IMG/VR virus record: IMGVR_UViG_3300049139_000178
Coordinates: 30,962 to 94,961 of that record
Origin: a virus
Reading direction: 5' to 3' (one strand)
DNA: 64,000 nucleotides
The notes below the pieces were generated by a model. It made no database searches, had not been told where the DNA came from, and saw nothing but the letters and a program-made list of their open reading frames with translations. Shown piece by piece: positions 2,229-63,371 of the stretch. Position 1 is the first letter of the stretch. Every line of letters begins with the position of its first letter. The translations under genes and the position numbers were made by a program.

Positions 2229-2281
2229 GTGCCCAAGCCCCCGCAGACCAAGGAAGCAATGACCAAGGAATCGAGGAACCG

Positions 2282-5200
2282 ATGACCACGTACGTGGAAG
2301 CGAACGCGGGGCAGTTGTCAGACCACCATCTGGCGGAGCTGGACGCGAGTGAGATCGCGCCGGAGGTGCGTGAAGAACGCGGATACGAGACCCTGTACGG
2401 CACCGACGAGGACAAAGCCCTGCTGCGGCAGGAGAAGATCCCGGTCTGGGCTTGGCGTGAAGAGAGTGCGTTTCCGGGACTCCTTCTGCCGATGTACCGG
2501 GTGACCGGCGAGCGCATCGGCGCCATGTTCAAGCCCGGCATCCCGCAGGTGCACAACGAGAAGAAGGTGAAATACGCGACGCCGGTGGGCAAGTCGCGTC
2601 TGGACATCCCACCGACTGTGGCGCACCTCGTCCGTCCGACAGACCCCAAGGTCATTCTTGAGGCACCGCTGTGGATCACGGAGGGCATCAAGAAGGCTGA
2701 CGCCCTCGCATCCAAGGGTCTCGCCACCGTCACCCTGTCCGGGGTGTTCAACTGGCGCGCAACCCTCGGCACGCTCGGGGACTGGGAAGACATCCCGCTC
2801 AAGGGGCGCCGGGTCATCATCTGCTTCGACGCGGACGCCCGGCACAAGCCCAGTGTCCTCTCCGCCATGATCCGCCTGGGCCGGTGGCTGGAGACCCGGC
2901 GGGTTGAGAGCGTCTACTACCTGATCGTCCCCGAGGAGGTGAACGGGGCCCAGGTCAAAGGTGTGGACGACTATCTCCACGCCGGCGGCACTCTCGAAGG
3001 GCTGCGGGACGCGGCCACGCGGGAAGTCCCGTCCGACAACACCCGGGATGCCGCCTTCAGTGACGCCGTTCTGGTCGAGACGCTGTGCATGGAGGCTCTG
3101 GAAGGGAACTACCGGTGGGCCTCGGGCCTGGGGTGGTTGAACTGGAACGGCAGTGTCTGGGCCGAGTGCTCGGAGGCTCAGGTGCTGGAAGAAATCCGGT
3201 TGTGGGCCCGTGCGGGGTGGGATCGGACCCTGGAGGAGATGCGAGGGGGCAAGGACCTGCGCGGCCAGTTGGACGGCTGGAAGGGCGTCCTCTCGGCCGG
3301 CAAGTTGGGCAGCCTGCTGAAACTGGCCCGGGGCGTCGCAGGGATTCTGGCCGACGCGAACGATTTCGACTACGACCCGGACGTCATCAACTGCCGAAAC
3401 GGCATCCTGGACCTGCGTACGGGTGTCCTGACCCCGCACGACCCGGACCGGTTGATGACGAAGATCACCGGTTGCGACTACGTGAAGGGCGCCACGCACC
3501 CCGACTGGACCACGGCTCTGGAGGCCGTCCCGGACGACTCCCGCGACTGGTTCCAGATCCGCAGCGGCCAGGCCATCACCGGCCACACCCCGCCGGACGA
3601 CATGATCCTCATCTGCCAGGGCGGCGGGTCCAACGGCAAGTCGTCCGTCATGGACTCCATCGCGATGGCCGCCGGGAAGAGGGGCGGCTACCACACGGTC
3701 GTCTCCGACAAGGCCCTGCTGGGGAACGCTTCCGACGGTCACTCCACGGAGATGATGCCGTTCATGGGCGCGCGTCTCGCCGTGCTGGAGGAGACCCCGG
3801 AGGCCAAGCGGCTGGACGTGAACCGGGTCAAGAAACTCGCGGGCACGGATCAGATCACCGCGCGCAAGATCCGCCAGGACAACATCACCTTCGCCACGAC
3901 GCACAGCCTGGTCATCAACACCAACTTCAAGCCCCTGGTGGACGAGACGGACCACGGCACATGGCGGCGTCTGGCCATGCTGGTGTTCCCGTTCACGTTC
4001 AGGAAGCCCGGGGAGGCGTGCACGGGGCCGAACGACAAGGCCGGTGACCCGAACCTGCGCCAGCGCCTGCGGGCTGACGAGCGGGTCGCCGAGGCCGTCC
4101 TGGCATGGCTCGTGGAGGGCGCCCGCAAGTGGTACGCGGCCGACATGATCCTGCCCCCGCCTCCGAGGCGGGTGGAGAAGGACACCCTGGAGTGGCGCCG
4201 TGAGTCGGACCTGATCCTGTCCTTCATCGGGGACGTCCTGGAGTTCGACTGGAACAGCCACATCGCCGCCCGGGAGCTGCACGAGGTCTTCAACAAGTAC
4301 CTCGTCGACAAGGGTCACCGGGAGTGGACCGACCGCACGTTCGTGAGCCGTTTCGGAAGCCACGACGAGTGCTCCCGGAACTCGGTCCAGCGGAAGAAGA
4401 TCAGGGCTCGGGACGGGCGGTCGACGCTGGGCGGACCCGCACCCACGGGCGTCAACTACTACGCGTGGCTAGGGATCAAGTTCCAGGACCCGAACGGAAA
4501 CGGCCAGGTCAGCGAGGAAGAGTCGGGAGGTGTACCGCCTGTACCCTCTCCTCCGGTTAACGGTGAAACTGTCTCTCGTATAGAGGTAACCGACGCAGGA
4601 GGTACAGGGGGTACACCTCCTCAACGCGACCCTGAAGCGGACCCGTTTGGGGATGATCCTTTCGCCGAAGCGGAAGCACCCCGCGTGGCCACCGTGCCTG
4701 CTCCGGCACCGTCCCCGGAGAGCGTCCCGCCCCGCGCCGGCGGCGTGATCGGATTCGACATCGAGTCACACTCGGCCAAGCGGCTGTTCACCCACACCGA
4801 CCTCGGCGGGGACCCGTACACCAAGCTGTCCGGCTACGTCACCGAGGACGGGACCGAGGTCGTCGTCAACTCCGTGCAGGAGCTGATCAAGCGTCTGGAA
4901 GACGCCGACGAGATCTACGGCCACAACCTGCTCGGGTTCGACCTCATGGCTCTCGCCCGTCACCACGGCGCCGACTACGACAAGCTGGCCGCCAAGACGG
5001 TGGATACCATGCGATGGGCGATGACTGTTGACCCGCCGGGCGCCAAGGGCGAAAAGCCGTGGTCCGCCAAGGGCTATTACAGTCTGGACGGCCTTGCCGC
5101 CCGGCTGGGCATGCCCGGCAAGACGGACGACCTCCGGGCCCTCGCCATCAAGCACGCCCCGGAGGAGATCGACGGGCGCAAGCTGACCGACGACGAGCGG

Positions 5201-23202: not shown

Positions 23203-24471
23203 ATGACCGACACCACCACATCGCTCCCGGTCTACGAGCGCCGGGACATCCCCGAGCAGCACCGGCACCTGCGCACAATGACGGAGCTGAAGAAGGACCG
23301 GCTGAAGCCCGCCGAGGGGCAGGAGCCCGTGGCCATGCTGCGGGTCTACCGGCGCGGGCACGGCTGGGGCAAGTTCCCGCTGTACGACCCGGCTGGCGCG
23401 GCGAAGATGCGCCCGCTGTCCGCGAAGCAGCAACGGGCCATGGAAGTCCGGCGCACCTGCCCCGAGTGCGAGGCCGTGCGCGGGTACGTCGTCTACACCC
23501 GGTGCACCGACTGCCGTACGAAGGCGCAGCAGGAAGCGCAGGACCGCCGGGCCCGGACCTGCGAGCGGTGCCGACGGGTGTCCGGGGCCGCGCTGCCGAA
23601 GGACGTACACGGCTGGCCGGCGTGCGACCCGTGCCGGATCCGTTACGCGCTCTGCAAGCAGCTCGCCGACGAGCGCGCGGCCGTGTGGCGCCGTACCTGC
23701 CCCGGATACCCGGGCCACGACTGCACGGTGCAGACAGCAACCGATGAGGAAATCACTGAGGCGTGGAACGCCGGAGACTACACCGGCCCCTGGCGATGCC
23801 CGCCGTGCGCGGAGGCCTACGACAGGTGGCAGGAGACCCAGCACCGCGAAGCGGAGGAGAACGGGCGCCGCGCTGAGGAAGCGCGGGAGCGGCAGGTCGC
23901 CGACCTGTCCGCGTGGGCGCGGGACGCCCTCGCCGACCCGGCCGTGGTCGTCCTGGACACGGAGACGACCGGGCTGCACGACGAGGCGCGCATCGTCGAC
24001 CTGGCTGTGCTGACCGCCGGCGGCGACGTCCTCGTGGACACGTTGCTCGACCCGGGCGAGCCGATCCCGGCCGAGGCGTGGGGAGTTCACGGCATCTCCG
24101 ACGCGGACGTGCAGAGGGCGCCCCGGTTCGGCGACATCCTGGTGCAGCTGACCGGCGCACTGGTCAACCGCCGGTGCCTGATCTACAACGACACGTTCGA
24201 CGTCGCCCGGCTGCGTCACGAGCTGACGCTGCACTACCGCGAGGCCGGCCACGACGACCCGGCCGCCTCCGCCGCCGCGTGGCTGGGCACGATGCGGTTC
24301 GAGGACGTGATGGTGCCGTACTCGGACTGGTTCGGGGAGGAGTCACCCTTCGGCGACTACCGCTGGCAGCCGTTGTACGGCGGGGACCACCGGGCCGCCT
24401 CCGACTGCCGCGCGGTGCTGGACCGGCTGCGCGACATGGCCTCCGGGGTTGTCGACCCGGTCGAGTCATGA
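23203..24471 (+). CDS. DEDDh 3'-5' exonuclease (DnaQ-like) with N-terminal Zn fingers
   Basis: VLDTETTGL, VHGI, YNDTFD, HRAASD; several CxxC pairs. Confidence 0.88.
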   Translation: MTDTTTSLPVYERRDIPEQHRHLRTMTELKKDRLKPAEGQEPVAMLRVYRRGHGWGKFPLYDPAGAAKMRPLSAKQQRAMEVRRTCPECEAVRGYVVYTRCTDCRTKAQQEAQDRRARTCERCRRVSGAALPKDVHGWPACDPCRIRYALCKQLADERAAVWRRTCPGYPGHDCTVQTATDEEITEAWNAGDYTGPWRCPPCAEAYDRWQETQHREAEENGRRAEEARERQVADLSAWARDALADPAVVVLDTETTGLHDEARIVDLAVLTAGGDVLVDTLLDPGEPIPAEAWGVHGISDADVQRAPRFGDILVQLTGALVNRRCLIYNDTFDVARLRHELTLHYREAGHDDPAASAAAWLGTMRFEDVMVPYSDWFGEESPFGDYRWQPLYGGDHRAASDCRAVLDRLRDMASGVVDPVES

Positions 24472-24483
24472 TTTAATCAAATC
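24449..24483 (+). promoter_or_regulatory. conserved promoter/operator copy
   Basis: TTGTCG-12 nt-CATGATTTAATCAAATC. Confidence 0.7.
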
Positions 24484-24512
24484 AGTAACACCGACCAAGG
24501 AAGGCAGGACCC

Positions 24513-24914
24513 ATGACCCTCATCGCCAAAGGTCCAGTGTGGACCGGCCGCATCTACGGCGTCCGCGCACGGGCAGCCACGTGGGAGATGACCCCGGTGG
24601 AGCTGGCCCGCGTGTTCGCCCACGCGCATGGCTACCGGACGGCCGTCGGCGGGTGGATCTACGACCCGGAAGGGCACCCCGTTGCCCACGGCTGGCAGTC
24701 TTTTGCCGACGCTCTCGCCGCGCGGGGGTGGATCGTAGAAGGCAAGGGCGTCGCCTGGACGAAAGCCACGTGGGAAGGCAACCGGCTCCCGCTGTCCAAG
24801 TCCTACCGCACGGAACTCGCCCACGACGCCAAGATGCAGGCGCAGGGACGCGAGCTGCGGCGCGTCATGCGCGGCGGCCGGATGGTCACCGCATGGGTGC
24901 CGAAGGGCTGCTGA
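24513..24914 (+). CDS. hypothetical protein in a single-gene cassette
   Basis: Promoter + CCGACCAAGGAA + ORF + terminator. Confidence 0.7.
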   Translation: MTLIAKGPVWTGRIYGVRARAATWEMTPVELARVFAHAHGYRTAVGGWIYDPEGHPVAHGWQSFADALAARGWIVEGKGVAWTKATWEGNRLPLSKSYRTELAHDAKMQAQGRELRRVMRGGRMVTAWVPKGC

Positions 24915-26333: not shown

Positions 26334-26368
26334 TTGTCCTCTGCGGGACCCTATGGTTTAATTAATTC
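26334..26368 (+). promoter_or_regulatory. conserved promoter/operator copy
   Basis: TTGTCC-12 nt-TATGGTTTAATTAATTC. Confidence 0.75.
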
Positions 26369-26408
26369 ATCGGGCAACGAGCCGGAAGACCAAGGAAAGA
26401 AGGAACGC

Positions 26409-27624: not shown

Positions 27625-27659
27625 TTGTGCCCCTGCCCGAGCTATGATTTAATTAAGTC
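27625..27659 (+). promoter_or_regulatory. conserved promoter/operator copy
   Basis: TTGTGC-12 nt-TATGATTTAATTAAGTC. Confidence 0.75.
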
Positions 27660-27700
27660 ATCGGGCAGGGGCCCGCCGGACCAAGGAAAAGGAACCGACC

Positions 27701-30097: not shown

Positions 30098-31104
30098 TGC
30101 CGCTCCCACCCACCGTGCTTGTCGTCACCGCGCCTGACGACCTCAGCGCCGATCTCGTGATACGGCAGATCCAGGAACGCGGCGTCACCATCCACCGCCT
30201 GAACCCTGCTGACCTCGCGCGTCCGGGGGCCCTGAGGATGACCGGCGTCTCAGACGGAGAGCCGTTACGGTTCACCATCGAAGACAACCACCGCTCCACG
30301 CTCTCGCAGTCGGTTGTCTCCGTTTTCTGGTGGCACCCGGGCCTGCCCGGTGGGTGGGAGCAGCAGGAGTCCCGGGCCATCCTGGAGGACTTCCTGTACG
30401 GCCTTGACGGGACGCTGTGGGTGAACCACCCGCTCCGGGCACAGGCTGCCCGGCCCGGCCCACGGCAACTGCACGTCGCTTCGTCTCTCGGCCTCCGGAC
30501 TCCACCCGCACTGTTCACCAACGACCCCGACCAGGCCGCTGCGTTCGCCGCCGAACAAGGCGGCAAGGTGGTGTGCAAGACCCTCACCGCACACCCGGAC
30601 CGGTTCGTCCAGGCCCGGCTGGTGTCCTCCGGGGAGATCCTGGCCAACGCAGATCACGTGCGGCAGAGCGTGTGTTACTTCCAGCGGCCTGTGGACAAGA
30701 CGCACGACATCCGACTGACGGTGATCGGCGACCGGATGTTCCCGTGCAAGGTCACCGCCGGCGGTGCGTTCGACTGGAGGGCGGCACCGGAGGACGACCT
30801 GGGTTTTGAGGCTGTGGGCGCCAGCCTGCCGCTGACGCAGAAAGTCCGGAAACTCATGCAGACGCTGGGGCTGGAGTACGCCGCCCTGGACTTCGCCGTC
30901 GACCAGGGCGGCACGTGGTGGTTCCTGGAAGCGAACCCGGCGGGCCAGTTCGGTTTCGTGGAGACGTCTACAGGGATGGTCATTTCGCGGGCCATCGCCG
31001 ACCACCTCGTTCAAACGGCCCTGGCCACCCACGTCTACACTCCCGGAGGCGGCCACCGAGCATATTCGGGGACGCCTTGGCAACGGGGGTCCGCCGGCGT
31101 GTAG
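30097..31104 (+). CDS. ATP-grasp peptide maturase (RimK/MvdD-like graspetide synthetase)
   Basis: DLSADLVI, WVNHP, GLRTP...TNDP, VCKTL, FQRPVDK..DIRLTVIG, DWR, AALDF, FLEANPAGQFGF; TTA codon at 30265. Confidence 0.9.
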   Translation: MPLPPTVLVVTAPDDLSADLVIRQIQERGVTIHRLNPADLARPGALRMTGVSDGEPLRFTIEDNHRSTLSQSVVSVFWWHPGLPGGWEQQESRAILEDFLYGLDGTLWVNHPLRAQAARPGPRQLHVASSLGLRTPPALFTNDPDQAAAFAAEQGGKVVCKTLTAHPDRFVQARLVSSGEILANADHVRQSVCYFQRPVDKTHDIRLTVIGDRMFPCKVTAGGAFDWRAAPEDDLGFEAVGASLPLTQKVRKLMQTLGLEYAALDFAVDQGGTWWFLEANPAGQFGFVETSTGMVISRAIADHLVQTALATHVYTPGGGHRAYSGTPWQRGSAGV

Positions 31105-42281: not shown

Positions 42282-42722
42282 ATGACGGAGAACTCGGGGA
42301 TCAAGGACTTCACCAAGAAGCGGAAGGACATCTCCTTCCGCGAGGGTGACGACATCTTCCACGCCGCGCGGGGCGTGCCTGCCGAGGTGCTGCTGGACTT
42401 CGCCACGGAGTTCTCCAGCATGGACACCTCGGCGACCATCGACCAGCAGCTCAAGGCCTTCCGCTCGATGCTGGAGGTCGTGCTGTTGCCCGACTCGCTG
42501 AAGCGGTTCAACGAGCGCATGCGCGACCGGGACAACCCCATCGAGATCGACCAGGTGGAGGACATCGTCACCTGGCTGATGGAGCAGTACGGGCTCCGCC
42601 CTACCGAACCGTCCTTGGTCTCGCCCTCTGGGCCCTCCGGCCCGGGACCTGGCATTACCTCGACGGTCAGTACACCGGCCGAGGTGTCGATATCCGCCAG
42701 CTCCCCGTCGATCGCTTCCTGA
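42282..42722 (+). CDS. tail assembly chaperone
   Basis: Two ORFs upstream of the tape measure; ...WLMEQYGLRPT. Confidence 0.75.
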   Translation: MTENSGIKDFTKKRKDISFREGDDIFHAARGVPAEVLLDFATEFSSMDTSATIDQQLKAFRSMLEVVLLPDSLKRFNERMRDRDNPIEIDQVEDIVTWLMEQYGLRPTEPSLVSPSGPSGPGPGITSTVSTPAEVSISASSPSIAS

Positions 42723-50629: not shown

Positions 50630-51166
50630 ATGGCCTGGACAGCCCCCATGACCGCAGTCGCGGGCAGTGTTTTCACGGCGGCGCAGTTCAACACCTTCAT
50701 CAGGGACAACCTCGCCGAGACCGCGCCGGCCAAGGCGGCCACGCCCGGCGGGTACTTCGTCACCACGGCGACGAACCAGATAGCCGAGCGAAACGGCCAG
50801 GTGGCAACCCAGCTGGCCAACGACAACACGACGTCCACGTCCTACACCGATCTGGACACCACTACGGGCCCGTCCCTGACCGTGACCACCGGCAACTGCG
50901 CCGTCGTCATCATCTCCGCCTCGCTGAGCAACTCGGCGAACGTGTCCGCGCGCATGGCGTACGAGGTGTCCGGCGCATCGTCCATCGCCCCTGCGGACAA
51001 CCGGGGTATCGGAACCTTCGGAGTGGCCGGCGTGGGCATCGTCGCCTCGAACACGCTCTTCCACAACGACCTGACGGCAGGCTCCAACACGTTCGCCGCC
51101 AAGTACCGCGTCGCCGGCGGAACCGGGTCCTTCACGTCCCGCCGTATCACCGTCCTGCCGCTCTAG
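50630..51166 (+). CDS. minor tail/fibre protein, paralog 2
   Basis: MAWTAPMTAVAG...; ends VLPL like paralog 1. Confidence 0.7.
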   Translation: MAWTAPMTAVAGSVFTAAQFNTFIRDNLAETAPAKAATPGGYFVTTATNQIAERNGQVATQLANDNTTSTSYTDLDTTTGPSLTVTTGNCAVVIISASLSNSANVSARMAYEVSGASSIAPADNRGIGTFGVAGVGIVASNTLFHNDLTAGSNTFAAKYRVAGGTGSFTSRRITVLPL

Positions 51167-59147: not shown

Positions 59148-59218
59148 GCGGATCCCTTCCGACCACCACCTGCCAGGCGTACGGTGATTTAAGGAAATCA
59201 GACCAAGGAGGACGGCCG

Positions 59219-59514: not shown

Positions 59515-59763
59515 TCAGCGCTCGACGTGCTGGAGTTCCTGCACCTTCCACGGGTCGGTGTGCGACAGCTTCATGAGGTCGCCGAACGTCCACCTCTGCT
59601 CCCGGGCCTTCTCCCAGATGCGCTGCGGGTTGTAGAAGGCCACCCCGAGGAGCTGCGGCAGACGTTCGCACCACCCAGCCATGGCCGCCGCGTCGTCGCA
59701 CTGTCCGATGCCCTGCCGCTTGGACCTCTTCAGCGCCACCTCGTACGTGTCGTCCACGGTCAC
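59515..59763 (-). CDS. hypothetical protein
   Basis: GGAGGAG RBS, coupled start. Confidence 0.65.
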   Translation of the reverse strand: MTVDDTYEVALKRSKRQGIGQCDDAAAMAGWCERLPQLLGVAFYNPQRIWEKAREQRWTFGDLMKLSHTDPWKVQELQHVER

Positions 59764-60191
59764 TCCTCCCCAGCGAGCTGCTTGAGCGACTCGACGGCCG
59801 CGTAGTCCACAGCCGCGAACTCGTCGCCCTTGGACGCCATCTCGTCCTCGGCCAGATCCAGGGCGTAGCGCAGCATCGCGCGCTCAGCGGAGTTCAGGCC
59901 CGGCCGAACCCCGGTCGACGTCACGTGGACCAGCGGCTTGGTGTGGCCGGGCGTGCCGAGCTGCTCGCGGCCGACGCACCACGAACACCCCTCCACGATC
60001 AGCCCGACGTGCTCTGTCTCGTGCAGCGCCTTGATGTGCGTGCACGGCGTGAGGGCGGGCACGCGGCTCAGCACCGTGTCGCGGTGCCGGTCAATTAGGG
60101 CCTGCGCTTCGTGCCGGTCCTCGCCGGCCTTCCGCAGCAGTACGTACAGTTCGACATCGGCGGCGATCTGTTCACCGGGTCCGTTGCTCAT
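59760..60191 (-). CDS. hypothetical protein
   Basis: Coupled operon ORF. Confidence 0.6.
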   Translation of the reverse strand: MSNGPGEQIAADVELYVLLRKAGEDRHEAQALIDRHRDTVLSRVPALTPCTHIKALHETEHVGLIVEGCSWCVGREQLGTPGHTKPLVHVTSTGVRPGLNSAERAMLRYALDLAEDEMASKGDEFAAVDYAAVESLKQLAGEE

Positions 60192-60772
60192 CGCCCCTCG
60201 TTCCCGTGGTCATCGGTCAGCCCCGCCTGTACGGCGAGGCACTCTTCACAGACGGCGATGCCGTCCGGTGTCGGACCCAGAATCTTGCAGAGCGTGACCC
60301 CGCACAGGGCCACCCCCTCGGCGGCGTACGGCGCGTCCCACTTCTCGTCCACGATGTGCGCGCGGATCCGGTGACCGGTGTCTCCGTAGCGCATCGGCTT
60401 CGGCAGCTCCAGCAGCGCCGGGTCCCAGCCGTCCGGCAGGTTCTCGGCGAGCAGCTCTGTGAGCCAGTCGGGCCGGGCCACGTAGCCGCGCGGGCCGTCG
60501 TTGCGCTCCTTCTCCCACCCGATGATCGTGATGGGCTTACCGACCGCCCCGGACTTCAGCCGCCGAGGTCCGACCACGGCGACGTAGGCCGATGCGCGGT
60601 TGCCGCGCGGGGTGCCTTCGTCCAGCCGCAGGGTGATCTCGACACGAGCCGGGAGGATCACGCGACCGTTCGACGGGTCGGTGAGTGCGTCCGTACGGGG
60701 CCGGGCGACCGGGACCACCACGGTCGTCTCAGTCGCCCGGCTGTATTCGTCGGGCAAGAAGTCGATGGTCAT
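60188..60772 (-). CDS. hypothetical protein with C-terminal Zn finger
   Basis: GACCACGGAAACGAGGAG leader; H...ALCG...C..C. Confidence 0.65.
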   Translation of the reverse strand: MTIDFLPDEYSRATETTVVVPVARPRTDALTDPSNGRVILPARVEITLRLDEGTPRGNRASAYVAVVGPRRLKSGAVGKPITIIGWEKERNDGPRGYVARPDWLTELLAENLPDGWDPALLELPKPMRYGDTGHRIRAHIVDEKWDAPYAAEGVALCGVTLCKILGPTPDGIAVCEECLAVQAGLTDDHGNEGR

Positions 60773-60808: not shown

Positions 60809-60906
60809 TGGTGGGCCCGCCCGGAGTCGAACCGGGGGCCCCGCAGAGCGCGTGGGAACCGACCAAGGTTCGCGCTCGGATGCGGGGCTGCCGCGCTGCG
60901 GGGCCC
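60809..60906 (-). ncRNA. 98-nt tRNA-like RNA shaped like a tmRNA tRNA-like domain, ending in ACCA
   Basis: GGGCCC/GGGCCC acceptor + ACCA; canonical T-arm CCCGG-TTCGACT-CCGGG; no D-stem; 8+7+4-bp long helix capped by TTGGTC; fully intergenic. Confidence 0.75.
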
Positions 60907-60945
60907 TCGTTGGCCGGGATCACGGCTCCCGGCCGGCCGTCGTGC

Positions 60946-61077
60946 TCATGCGTCTTCGTCGGGCCGGTACTCGTGGCGCCCCGGTGAGGCGAACAGGTAC
61001 CCACACAAGTCACAGGTCCCGTCGTGGTGTTCACTCTTAGGGTGCCCGCACTCGGCACACGGTTTGGCTTTCGTCAT
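60946..61077 (-). CDS. 43-aa Zn-finger micro-protein
   Basis: MTKAKPCAECGHPKSEH...CDLC...H; GACCACGGAAGTGAGGAG leader. Confidence 0.6.
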   Translation of the reverse strand: MTKAKPCAECGHPKSEHHDGTCDLCGYLFASPGRHEYRPDEDA

Positions 61078-61099: not shown

Positions 61100-61282
61100 T
61101 CACAGGTTCAGGATGTTCTCGGCGCGGCACTGCGCGCAGTCCTTCAGGTTGTCCGGGTGGACGGAGCCCCATGCGTCCATGTGGTCGCGAGTATCGTCCG
61201 GCTGGAAGGCCGTGCCCTCCAGGAAGCCGCGCTCCGAAGTTCCATCGGGGCCGTAGTGCCAGCCGTCGTCCATGGCGGTCAC
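61100..61282 (-). CDS. small hypothetical protein
   Basis: H...H...CAQC; coupled to the DUF262 gene stop. Confidence 0.55.
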   Translation of the reverse strand: MTAMDDGWHYGPDGTSERGFLEGTAFQPDDTRDHMDAWGSVHPDNLKDCAQCRAENILNL

Positions 61283-61863
61283 AGCCCGGCCACCCGCGCC
61301 GCGTTGGCCATGTCGTCGCTCGTCTGCTGCGTGCCGCCGCCGTTGACCAACAGGTAGAACCGGGCCTCATCGGCCTCGGTCGCGCAGTCGCTGATCTCGG
61401 CGACCATGAACCCGCACCGGCGCTTCACGAAGATGCTGCCCTTCCGGGTTAGGCCTGTGAAACGGACGTACGGGCCGTCGTCGGTGTCCTCGGTCTCAGC
61501 CACGTAGTTGTCGGGCATCCACGAGGCTGGTACGGCGAACTCGCCGGCGAACCACGCCATGGCCGTAGTCAAGCGCTGTTTGCCGTCGACCACGGCCCAG
61601 ATGCCCAGGCCCGTCTCGTACGGGTCCCCGTTGCTCCAGAGGTCGGTGCCCCGGTTGGAGAGGATGACGACACCGGCGGGCAGGCCGCGCAGCCACGACT
61701 CCACGAGCGCGATGCGCTGGTCCAGCGTCCACACGCTGCCACGCTGGTACGGCGGGTCCAGCAGCAGGGACCCGTCCTTGAGGTTCTGTACCTGGCCCCA
61801 CGCCTCGCGGTACGTCGGGTTCAGGTTGGTGTGCTCCAACGGGGCGGCGGTCTGCCTGGTCAT
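61279..61863 (-). CDS. stand-alone DUF262 (GmrSD N-terminal/ParB-like) protein
   Basis: PPYQRGSVW, LVESWLRGLP, VVDGKQRLTT, FY..NGGG. Confidence 0.85.
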   Translation of the reverse strand: MTRQTAAPLEHTNLNPTYREAWGQVQNLKDGSLLLDPPYQRGSVWTLDQRIALVESWLRGLPAGVVILSNRGTDLWSNGDPYETGLGIWAVVDGKQRLTTAMAWFAGEFAVPASWMPDNYVAETEDTDDGPYVRFTGLTRKGSIFVKRRCGFMVAEISDCATEADEARFYLLVNGGGTQQTSDDMANAARVAGL

Positions 61864-61907
61864 GGTCGGTTCCTCGTTTCTGTGATCGGCGTGCAGTGTC
61901 TGAAGTC

Positions 61908-62540
61908 CTACGGGGTCCGGCGCTGGGCGACGAACTCGGCCGCGTTGAGCGCGACGAACTGCCCGCGCGGGCCGGCGGGGCCGACGGCCGACCACACACC
62001 GCACGACTCGCCCGTGACCGCGTGCGGGACGGGCGCCAGCGTCCAGTCGATACCGTTCGCTTCCACGGTCACGGTGCCGTCCGGCTGCGCGGTGGGCTCC
62101 AGCCCCTTCGCCCGGAGGGCCTTGACGAGCGGCTCCGATTCCCCGGACGGGGCAGGGGTCTGCTCGGTCTGGCCGGCCCGCACCGCGAGCTGATGGAAGG
62201 CAGCGCGGTCGGCGGCGTCGAGCGGCTGACCGTCTGTCACGTCGTCCTCGCAGTCGCGACACACAGTCGGCTGCTCGGAGTCGCGGACCTCCGTAGCCCA
62301 CTTCGTCCCGCACACGACGCAGCGCTGCGGTTCGACGACCGTCGCGCCCGTCGCCCGGTCGATGACCTTGATCTCGATCTCGGCGCCGCGCGCGTTGGCC
62401 GCTTGCAGCGTCTCGATCATGGCGGCCTCGGCGGCGCCGAGCGTCCACTTCGGCGTGCGGGCCGGCTTGCCGCCGTCCCAGGCGTACACGACGGCGTACG
62501 GCATCGTCTGGCCCTTGTTGTGGCCTCCGCCTTTGCCCAT
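61908..62540 (-). CDS. hypothetical protein with CxxC pairs
   Basis: GAGGAACCGACCATG leader; first gene after the promoter. Confidence 0.65.
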   Translation of the reverse strand: MGKGGGHNKGQTMPYAVVYAWDGGKPARTPKWTLGAAEAAMIETLQAANARGAEIEIKVIDRATGATVVEPQRCVVCGTKWATEVRDSEQPTVCRDCEDDVTDGQPLDAADRAAFHQLAVRAGQTEQTPAPSGESEPLVKALRAKGLEPTAQPDGTVTVEANGIDWTLAPVPHAVTGESCGVWSAVGPAGPRGQFVALNAAEFVAQRRTP

Positions 62541-62579
62541 GGTCGGTTCCTCGTTTCCGGCCGGTCTGTCCGGCTCATT

Positions 62580-62614
62580 GATTTAATTAAATCAGAAAGT
62601 CCCGGGGCGCACAA
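62580..62614 (-). promoter_or_regulatory. conserved promoter/operator copy (perfect palindrome)
   Basis: Minus strand TTGTGC-12 nt-TCTGATTTAATTAAATC. Confidence 0.75.
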
Positions 62615-62646
62615 CCCCGGGACCCGATTCGATTCCTGGCCGGTCG

Positions 62647-63339
62647 TCAGCCGCGCGGCCGGCGCCGCACCCGGGCCAGCCAGTCCACCGTGACGAACGT
62701 CGTCAACGGGCCGGTGTTTCCGTCGTCGCTCAACCACACCGCGTCCGCGAGCGGGAAACGCAGGCCGTCCACGAACTCACCGTAGTTATTGCCGTGCCGG
62801 TCCATGATGCGGCCCTCGCCGGTCACAGTGCCGCGCACGGTGACGGTCAGCGCCTTGCCCCGCTCCACGGAGAGCCCACGGAACCCCCGCCAGCCGCAGA
62901 TGTTCCGAGAGCCGAGCACGACGTACCGGAAACTAATCTCGTCGCCGATCTCGATCTCGCTCGGCTTCACCGATTCGGTGTACCCGCCCGCATCTTCCCG
63001 GGCGACGTACGCGGCCTGTTCGGCCTTCACGGTCTCCTGCTGCTCCACGTAGTGGGCGCAGAACCCGTGCGGGTCGGCCGCCGGGACGGCTGCCAGGGCC
63101 CGCGTCACGGCGTCGCCCAGCGAGACCCCACGGGCCTTGAGGAAGGCGCCGAGGGCGGGCTTCAGCCCGTCCTTATCTACGCCCCAGGGGAAGTCAGGCA
63201 CCCCGGCGGCGATGGCGTCCCGGGCGGCGACGGCCGCCTTGCGGCTGGGTAGGGAGTAGGTGGTGACGTGGATGCCGGCGGGCACGGTGACGACGTGCCA
63301 CTCACCGCGCTTCTCCGAGCGGATGTCCAGGTTGCTCAT
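62647..63339 (-). CDS. hypothetical protein
   Basis: GACCAAGGAACGAGGAACCGACCATG leader. Confidence 0.7.
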   Translation of the reverse strand: MSNLDIRSEKRGEWHVVTVPAGIHVTTYSLPSRKAAVAARDAIAAGVPDFPWGVDKDGLKPALGAFLKARGVSLGDAVTRALAAVPAADPHGFCAHYVEQQETVKAEQAAYVAREDAGGYTESVKPSEIEIGDEISFRYVVLGSRNICGWRGFRGLSVERGKALTVTVRGTVTGEGRIMDRHGNNYGEFVDGLRFPLADAVWLSDDGNTGPLTTFVTVDWLARVRRRPRG

Positions 63340-63371
63340 GGTCGGTTCCTCGTTCCTTGGTCAATGGTGGG

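Follow-up and report, generated by a model that had tools for sequence, protein, structure and literature searches.

A tRNA-derived, non-decoding RNA of a Streptomyces phage-plasmid with an apical loop complementary to a shared gene leader

Introduction

The C4 antisense RNA of P1 and P7 carries loops that pair with sites at the ribosome-binding site in its own operon, blocking translation. Phage T4 encodes two stable RNAs, C and D (species 1 and 2), which are tRNA-like, are processed with tRNAs and do not decode; we know of no antisense target for either. The RNA gene described here is unrelated to the T4 RNAs in sequence and layout, and judged by its own sequence it may combine a phage antisense RNA of the RNase P-matured type with a tRNA mimic. 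It is 98 nt long and lies on the minus strand at 60809-60906 of a 64,000-nt stretch of viral DNA (IMG/VR record IMGVR_UViG_3300049139_000178, positions 30,962 to 94,961), the whole of which is called the window below. A first-pass annotation, made from the letters alone, took it for a small RNA built like the tRNA-like domain of transfer-messenger RNA (tmRNA), with a loop antisense to a motif found near the starts of many phage genes. We put at about even the chance that the product of the gene is a natural tRNA scaffold whose anti-leader loop represses translation, a reading that draws on conservation, base pairing and complementarity.

C4 would be the closest natural analogue in mechanism. 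It too is an antisense RNA encoded by a phage-plasmid, and it is matured by RNase P, which cuts it from a longer transcript (ref. 206 in PMC4919922). Its family (RF01695) shows no sequence or Rfam match to the element, however; C4 is not a full tRNA body with T and D arms, and it has essentially one target operon, against 20-25% of genes here. In architecture, the nearest relative is the engineered tRNA scaffold of Ponchon and Dardel, in which, according to PMC3753655, the acceptor, T and D arms are kept, the anticodon stem-loop is swapped for a hairpin insert, and the tRNA body causes the construct to be processed and stabilised in bacteria. That scaffold is man-made, whereas the element described here would be a natural counterpart with a regulatory cargo.

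The closest parallel for the leader itself is the start-associated sequence (SAS) of the Cluster K mycobacteriophages, an asymmetric motif of unknown function present at 11-19 non-coupled genes, where it overlaps or adjoins the ribosome-binding site (Pope et al. 2011, PMC3203893). Each K1 genome also has one copy of the SAS in reverse orientation (PMC3203893).

A tRNA body without an anticodon arm

On re-reading, the sequence and segmentation first given for the gene agreed exactly with the window, and the layout drawn from them is also the minimum-free-energy fold: a 6-bp acceptor stem, a T arm, an interrupted helix of 8+7+4 bp, a 12-nt unstructured segment and a 3' ACCA (Table 1). The predicted energy is -57.6 kcal/mol (z = -2.86), and none of 200 shuffled sequences was equally stable.

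At least nine distinct orthologous copies were found, from related Streptomyces phage-plasmids of ~93-99 kb, and they bear out the proposal of a real tRNA-mimicking RNA that is conserved, non-coding and structured. In an alignment of seven sequences, 93.6% of cells were paired, against 27-50% when the partners were slid. Three stems contain pairs in which both bases have changed, namely the acceptor stem (C-G/U-A), the D stem (U-A/A-U/G-C) and the T stem (C-G/U-A), and one pair of the outer helix shows stepwise compensation from C-G in the window through U.G in L001 to U-A in L002 and L023. The copies differ from one another by indels of 1, 2 and 5 nt, so the sequence cannot be protein-coding.

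The lack of a D stem, remarked on at first, holds for the window lineage (the window copy, L001, L002 and L023) but not for L003, L005, L006, L219 and pS1D4-14.2, each of which has a canonical D arm. These five copies have a textbook class-I tRNA body in which only the anticodon arm is replaced: a 7-bp acceptor stem, U8-A9, a D arm with a 4-bp stem (GCUC/GAGC or GCAC/GUGC) and GG in the D loop, A26, a variable loop of 4-5 nt, the T arm and A73. In the window lineage, 5 nt of the D loop are deleted and the former 3' strand of the D stem is re-paired into an 8-bp extension of the long arm. Every copy found has an acceptor stem and a T arm with a UUCRANY loop, and none has the 5-bp anticodon stem with a 7-nt anticodon loop. 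Judged by these features, the element is a tRNA derivative unable to decode.

Gene-finding programs handle the locus poorly. ARAGORN forces the window copy into a tRNA-Ser(cga), and calls the orthologues Thr(cgt), Ser(cga) at a different position, or nothing; because the anticodon calls disagree among orthologues they are artefacts, and the tRNA-Ser label is wrong here. The Infernal search against Rfam that the first-pass annotation had suggested left the element without a family: neither the tRNA nor the tmRNA models matched the window copy even at E<=10, with the adjoining tRNA-Glu scoring 53.6 bits as a positive control, and the copy stays below the gathering threshold of the tRNA family (RF00005), with no hit. 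No tRNA that resembles the body, and might have been its source, was found in two Streptomyces genomes. An intron-containing tRNA was considered as a candidate and rejected, in that removal of the insert leaves a 4-bp stem with a 2-nt loop and no anticodon loop.

Kinship with the tRNA-like domain of tmRNA has to be given up. The likeness is limited to the window copy, with its acceptor stem, T arm, unstructured analogue of the D loop and long helix in place of the anticodon arm, and it arises from the secondary 5-nt deletion and re-pairing. The element differs from that domain in being a 98-nt RNA with no pseudoknots, no tag reading frame and no G3-U70. The last two absences had been recognized from the start: the pair at 3:70 is G-C in the window copy (in all copies found it is G3-C70, or C.C in an alternative register), and ARAGORN makes no tmRNA or tag call, just as the Rfam tmRNA families give no match at E<=10. 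The gene for SmpB (PF01668) was not found in five complete relatives, with control genomes that do score. Finally, the D stem is normal in the relatives, and their canonical D arm argues that the ancestry is tRNA, not tmRNA. We consider it highly improbable that this is a tRNA gene in decay that no longer has a function, or that its product is a tmRNA-like RNA which becomes charged and is taken into ribosomes. In favour of these two readings stand the ARAGORN tRNA call, the tmRNA-like look of the window copy and the mismatches or bulge seen in the acceptor stem of some copies. They fit badly with the tRNA ancestry, the missing anticodon loop and the missing tmRNA features and SmpB just described, and with an insert that is perfectly conserved among copies differing at 46% of the other columns.

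Conservation of the apical loop

The insert consists of a GC clamp and an apical 14-mer, CCUUGGUCGGUUCC. Together these contain no variable column among 28, compared to 33 of 71 in the rest of the alignment; for the 14-mer alone the figure is 0 of 14, and the flanking positions are variable at 4 of 4. The 5' flank reads AA, AG, UU or CAU, and all seven clamp pairs are identical in all copies found. In L006 and pS1D4-14.2 the inner AACC/GGUU stem of the window copy is gone, and the clamp closes an open loop of 16-17 nt. Since the flank changes abolish that stem while the 14-mer is kept, selection appears to act on the sequence and not on the stem, and on this evidence the apical loop is under sequence-specific selection. 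The central UUGGUC has a predicted probability of 0.99-1.0 of being unpaired.

A leader shared by many genes

The core of the leader, GACCAAGG, occurs 27 times in the window as against 2.2 expected, a count that none of 100 shuffles reached, and 40-50 times per complete relative as against 6-9 for a control. The earlier remark that the core precedes many genes is correct, with about 15-17 copies located 12-20 nt before a start codon, and the longer form CCGACCAAGG is indeed present at 24491 and 29355. The copy within the RNA gene (60861-60868 on the plus strand) is the sole intergenic antisense copy, as had been supposed; the other two that might have competed for the title, at 42613 (-) and 59201 (+), are respectively within a coding sequence and the true leader of a plus-strand gene.

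As compiled from k-mers upstream of crude gene calls, the leader has the consensus cGACCAAGGAA-CGAGGAA-CCGACC-AUG and stands before 20-25% of genes. Box 1, ACCGACCAAGG, stops 12-16 nt short of the start codon, and box 2, GGAACCGACCA, runs up to and includes the A of the AUG; a variant with GACCACGG also occurs. The window has about 15 box-1 leaders, of which Table 1 lists a representative. The genes behind the leader are of mixed function and include a primase-helicase-polymerase fusion (identified with PHROGs), an epimerase and many unknowns. What they share is their position: an upstream gap of 10 nt or less is found for 4-7% of leader genes compared to 36-42% of other genes, so that leader-bearing genes are seldom translationally coupled. 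The motif is asymmetric and has a single orientation at a fixed short distance from the starts of these non-coupled genes.

A tandem duplication is found in front of the 1456-aa primase-helicase-polymerase gene, where two GACCAAGGAA boxes lie 15 nt apart (window 2246-2268, plus strand); the doublet is kept in relatives, as paired matches. In addition, AT-rich boxes resembling TTAATTAAnTCATCGGGCA stand out in this 69% GC genome some 5-25 nt upstream of some GACCAAGG leaders, at ~24467-24490, 26358-26387, 27649-27678, 59184-59200 and 62560-62590. They are probably the promoter or operator of the phage-plasmid itself.

Complementarity of loop and leader

Both halves of the leader overlap with GGAACCGACCAAGG, the complement of the 14-mer. 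The complementarity first noticed is far beyond chance and proves to be longer than described, extending over 11 nt and involving two boxes, one of which spans the region from the Shine-Dalgarno sequence to the AUG. When a start-associated site is defined as a complement of at least 9 nt within -6 to +30 of a start, three complete genomes have 14, 20 and 21 such sites and the 64-kb window has 5. One hundred shuffled loops gave means of 0.2-0.3 (maximum 3-7) and the reversed sequence gave none, an enrichment of 50-100 fold over the shuffled loops. Two 11-nt classes dominate these sites, each at a fixed distance from the start codon. Counted by gene, complementarity of at least 9 nt is found in 19-31 of about 120 leaders per genome, compared to 1 of about 300 windows taken from inside coding sequences. 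The pairing is lengthened to 13-15 nt in G004 by the UU flank peculiar to its lineage. The predicted duplexes of the loop alone with its targets have energies of -21 to -24 kcal/mol, and opening the apical stem of the window copy costs about 4.8 kcal/mol.

The genes with box 2 are not scattered. In all four genomes they cluster on the same strand as the RNA gene, 1-9 kb upstream of it (7 of 7 in G002). Host genomes were also searched for targets and gave only scattered matches with 0-1 mismatch, near chance, none of them multi-copy or common to the hosts.

The window, G001-G004, G007 and pS1D4-14.2 have both the leader and the hairpin RNA. G005 and G006 share a module of upstream hairpin plus tRNA, and have neither the long-arm RNA nor the leader. 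G006 was considered as a genome with the motif and no RNA, and was set aside because its GACCAAGG copies are in-frame Thr-Lys codons.

A match of this kind could in principle reside in the DNA, with GACCAAGG and GGAACCGACC being the site of a DNA-binding regulator and the RNA gene holding an inverted copy, for example for self-regulation. Double-stranded sites can be read in either orientation, and some leaders do follow AT-rich boxes that look like promoters or operators. We regard this explanation as decidedly improbable: the boxes keep a fixed distance from start codons, not from promoters, and occur inside operons; the leader genes are those that are not translationally coupled, which suggests an action on translation; the RNA gene combines the boxes in a single overlapping 14-mer, unlike the spaced boxes of the leaders; and that 14-mer falls exactly at the tip of a covarying RNA structure.

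Proposed mechanism

By sequence, the element has one feature expected of a translation-blocking antisense small RNA, an accessible loop complementary to the ribosome-binding region of its predicted targets. The RNA, lying in a polycistronic unit of small genes, would be excised by the host tRNA-processing enzymes, with RNase P cutting at the 5' end, trimming at the 3' end, and a CCA that is encoded or added. Maturation by RNase P is suggested by the tRNA-like acceptor stem and T arm, by the ACCA and by the place of the gene within an operon. The tRNA body would provide precise ends and stability, and the 7-bp GC clamp that replaces the anticodon arm would present the invariant 14-nt sequence. 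In the cell, this sequence would pair with box 1, just 5' of the Shine-Dalgarno sequence, and with box 2, between the Shine-Dalgarno sequence and the A of the AUG, and pairing would most likely block binding of the 30S subunit and so repress translation. The best targets would be the genes just upstream in the same arm, with the other leader genes modulated more weakly. The clustering of the box-2 genes by the RNA gene suggests feedback or a temporal shut-off of that block.

The sign of the effect could also be positive, if pairing opened an inhibitory leader structure or if the tRNA-like body recruited ribosomes, making the RNA a one-to-many activator. Box 1 is upstream of the Shine-Dalgarno sequence, where binding of a small RNA can activate, and the leader genes include essential functions such as the primase-helicase-polymerase fusion. 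Activation is nonetheless improbable. Pairing with box 2 covers the spacer between the Shine-Dalgarno sequence and the AUG as well as the A of the start codon, the classical repressive geometry, which makes repression the likelier sign; and the leaders are short and purine-rich, with no obvious inhibitory fold to be opened.

A different view places the function in the tRNA-like body. The body might punctuate the operon mRNA for splitting by RNase P and RNase Z, with a conserved hairpin just upstream protecting the new 3' end, or it might be a decoy for a factor of the host or the phage that binds tRNA, for instance an anticodon nuclease or a modification enzyme; the long hairpin would then be read by a protein and the match to the leader would be secondary. 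We judge this rather unlikely, and several observations do favour it. The gene sits in mid-operon without a promoter or terminator of its own; the upstream hairpin stands 7 nt before it in every copy found and also precedes ordinary phage tRNAs; tRNA mimicry recurs, in that relatives have other non-decoding tRNA-like genes (a mini form in L004, another in L034 and a second mimic, all described below); and the 7-bp clamp is invariant with no covariation. What the body alone leaves unexplained is the match of the 14-mer to two boxes at fixed positions, at 50-100 times chance, and the clustering of the box-2 genes beside the RNA gene. The second mimic also serves as a negative control: its apical sequence has 0-1 start-associated complements, showing that a tRNA-like body by itself has no such complementarity.

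Comparison with the Cluster K phages

In phage Anaya, the reverse SAS copy proves to be the 10-nt loop CCUCCUAUCC of a GC-clamped, conserved intergenic hairpin, in the 385-bp unannotated gap that follows the gp96 terminator (between gp96 and gp97). The structured region has z = -3.8 and is conserved in 182 Cluster K phages, and the gap is a candidate for an undescribed non-coding RNA. The likeness to the present system is that a motif at the starts of non-coupled genes is mirrored by an antisense loop on a GC-clamped hairpin. The motif sequences are unrelated, however, the Cluster K RNA has no tRNA body, and the SAS does not co-vary with its loop.

A promoter-like TTGGCG...TAGACT and two conserved hairpins, the second being the anti-SAS hairpin, occur at 59715-60066 of Mycobacterium phage Anaya (JF704106; L116 9715-10066). 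About 30 nt after the anti-SAS hairpin, at L116 9911-9922, stands the 12-nt GCCGTGATCCCG, which equals the loop and 3' arm of the conserved hairpin found upstream of the RNA gene in the window, without its 5' arm; this occurrence may be due to chance.

The Cluster K phages also supply part of the case against repression by an anti-leader loop. In a hand alignment, the anti-SAS loop of Amohnition, Krueger and Bryler has drifted to about 8 of 10 complementary positions; in Yuna and SirPhilip the loop is missing or has been deleted. In phages with a drifted or lost loop the SAS is unchanged, in 13-18 copies. Since the SAS persists without a matching loop, such leaders can work without an antisense RNA and have an intrinsic role; by analogy, an antisense loop would be at most a modulator and not the reason for the existence of the motif. 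The strong claim of the first-pass annotation, a switch for a whole gene class, is weakened by this analogy. At the present locus, the 14-mer and the leader are identical across all copies and carriers among the matches listed, and scans independent of the loop (with the upstream hairpin, and with the clamp plus the T arm) returned only the identical 14-mer among the matches listed. All carriers belong to one clade, so that the co-occurrence of RNA and leader is one evolutionary event. The invariance of the clamp without covariation could reflect recognition of the hairpin by a protein. A short stem ties up 7-8 of the 14 loop bases in the window copy, and duplex energies computed for the full hairpin fail to separate leaders from coding sequence in this GC-rich genome; the whole-hairpin energies were set aside in favour of counts of exact complements and duplexes of the loop alone. 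Finally, the RNA would have to be highly abundant for an 11-nt seed to act on more than 20 mRNAs.

With these reservations, a broader picture can be offered tentatively, and we hold it to be on the doubtful side: phages of Actinomycetota may use dedicated anti-leader RNAs that mirror a start-associated motif, built here into a natural tRNA scaffold, which would let a single small RNA control the translation of many genes, by shutting them off early or silencing them in the plasmid state, and would supply the missing trans-acting partner of the SAS, a motif whose function has been an open question since 2011. Should the pairing prove real, the RNA would be the first case in nature of the tRNA-scaffold design, at which RNA engineers arrived independently, and a rare one-to-many translational regulator encoded by a phage, and the role of the start-associated leader motifs of actinophages would become open to direct test. 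Nucleotide-level positions are available for the RNA and for roughly 20-40 predicted targets, and there are cultured carriers in Streptomyces sp. S1D4-14 (with pS1D4-14.2), S. africanus NRRL B-24243 and Streptomyces sp. NRRL S-455.

Genomic setting

The host element is a Streptomyces phage-plasmid of ~95 kb. Relatives include complete records of ~93-99 kb that have direct repeats at their ends. Two of these are each an entire contig in Streptomyces sp. NRRL S-455 and S. africanus NRRL B-24243, and another is the linear plasmid pS1D4-14.2 of Streptomyces sp. S1D4-14, in which the element is unannotated. No DNA match to the locus or the element was found among GenBank phages.

The RNA gene is in the middle of a co-oriented block of small genes (Table 1). 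The mismatched leader variant GACCACGGAA of the genes on either side is predicted to form a duplex with the loop of about -13.1 kcal/mol. A terminator-like hairpin followed by an AT-rich box probably marks the start of the transcription unit that holds the RNA gene. No promoter or terminator consensus was found between it and the RNA gene, and the RNA is probably co-transcribed and then excised.

Table 1. Features in and around the RNA gene (window coordinates)
Feature	Position	Strand	Remarks
tRNA-derived non-decoding RNA gene, 98 nt	60809..60906	-	acceptor stem, D-loop remnant, long arm, T arm, encoded ACCA
T arm CCCGG-UUCGACU-CCGGG with canonical UUCRANY loop	60820..60836	-	C-G/U-A covariation at first pair
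Outer 8-bp helix GCCCCGCA/UGCGGGGC	60838..60888 (60881-60888 with 60838-60845)	-	window lineage only
7-bp GC clamp GAGCGCG/CGCGCUC	60846..60877 (60871-60877 with 60846-60852)	-	presents the loop; invariant
Apical 14-mer CCUUGGUCGGUUCC (anti-leader sequence)	60855..60868	-	invariant; central UUGGUC always unpaired
Conserved hairpin CCGGGA-GCCGUGA-UCCCGG, 19 nt	60914-60932	-	7 nt before the RNA 5' end
Hairpin plus 5' ACGGC (60936-60940), pairable with loop GCCGU	60914..60940	-	identical in all copies found
Downstream co-oriented gene, 194 aa, no family	60188..60772	-	leader is mismatched variant GACCACGGAA, kept in relatives
Upstream co-oriented gene, 43 aa, CxxC...CxxC	60946..61077	-	leader also GACCACGGAA
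Box 2 of gene 61279-61863	61864..61873	-	
Box 2 (GGAACCGACC then AUG) of gene 61908-62540	62541..62550	-	13 of 14 loop bases pair, -24.4 kcal/mol
Terminator-like hairpin, then AT-rich box	62597..62625	-	
Full leader with both boxes (GACCAAGG...GGAACCGACC-AUG) of gene 62647-63339	63340..63362	-	loop-target duplex -21.3 kcal/mol
Box 1, 11-nt form ACCGACCAAGG, of gene 24513-24914	24490..24500	+	duplex -21.3 kcal/mol

One of the box-2 genes (61279-61863, minus strand) has a domain of the GmrSD_N/DUF262 type (Pfam E = 3.5e-16) and matches DUF262 genes of large Streptomyces plasmids. From its sequence, the product is possibly a fragment of a modification-dependent nuclease, or the gene a defence gene, in the same operon as the RNA.

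The upstream hairpin and other tRNA-like genes

The conserved hairpin that precedes the RNA gene is followed by a 3' CA and could form a pseudoknot with the ACGGC on its 5' side. No Rfam family matched it. It is also present in L004, L008, L009, L012, L014, L015, L017, L029-L031, L034, L036, L039 and L052, and its contexts include positions before phage tRNAs, tRNA-like genes and protein genes, as well as the nusG-rplK spacer of Rhodocyclaceae, with rplA next. The spacer in front of rplK and rplA is the expected place of the autoregulatory site of ribosomal protein L1. The rplK leader of the Streptomyces host itself has no such hairpin, and an approximate pattern for the L1 stalk (23S H76-78) had no match in the draft host genome. 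The hairpin may be an uncatalogued RNA motif, perhaps a mimic of an L1 site.

The second non-decoding tRNA mimic was found in G004 (51053-51151, minus strand), G002 (~42600-42701, plus strand) and G005 (75676-75766, minus strand), at loci L077, L082 and L074. It has a canonical acceptor stem (with a C1:A72 mismatch), D arm and T arm but lacks a CCA, and where the anticodon arm would be there is a covarying 7-bp stem plus a CCCCGG-loop-CCGG hairpin. Current annotation misses at least two RNA genes of this phage-plasmid group that derive from tRNAs and do not decode.

Other forms stand just 3' of the conserved hairpin elsewhere. L004 (IMGVR_UViG_3300036771_000090) has a mini form made up of an acceptor stem, a linker like a D loop and a T arm, with neither anticodon arm nor CCA. 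In L034 (Ga0307296_10166571) there is a tRNA-like gene with an insert that holds a second hairpin, GGGGGA-GUGA-UCCCCC. The copy of the conserved hairpin in L012 (Ga0080006_1163879), a low-GC phage-like contig, lies ~1 kb downstream of two ribozymes, a type II hammerhead and a twister-sister, at 3020-3085 and 3496-3564.

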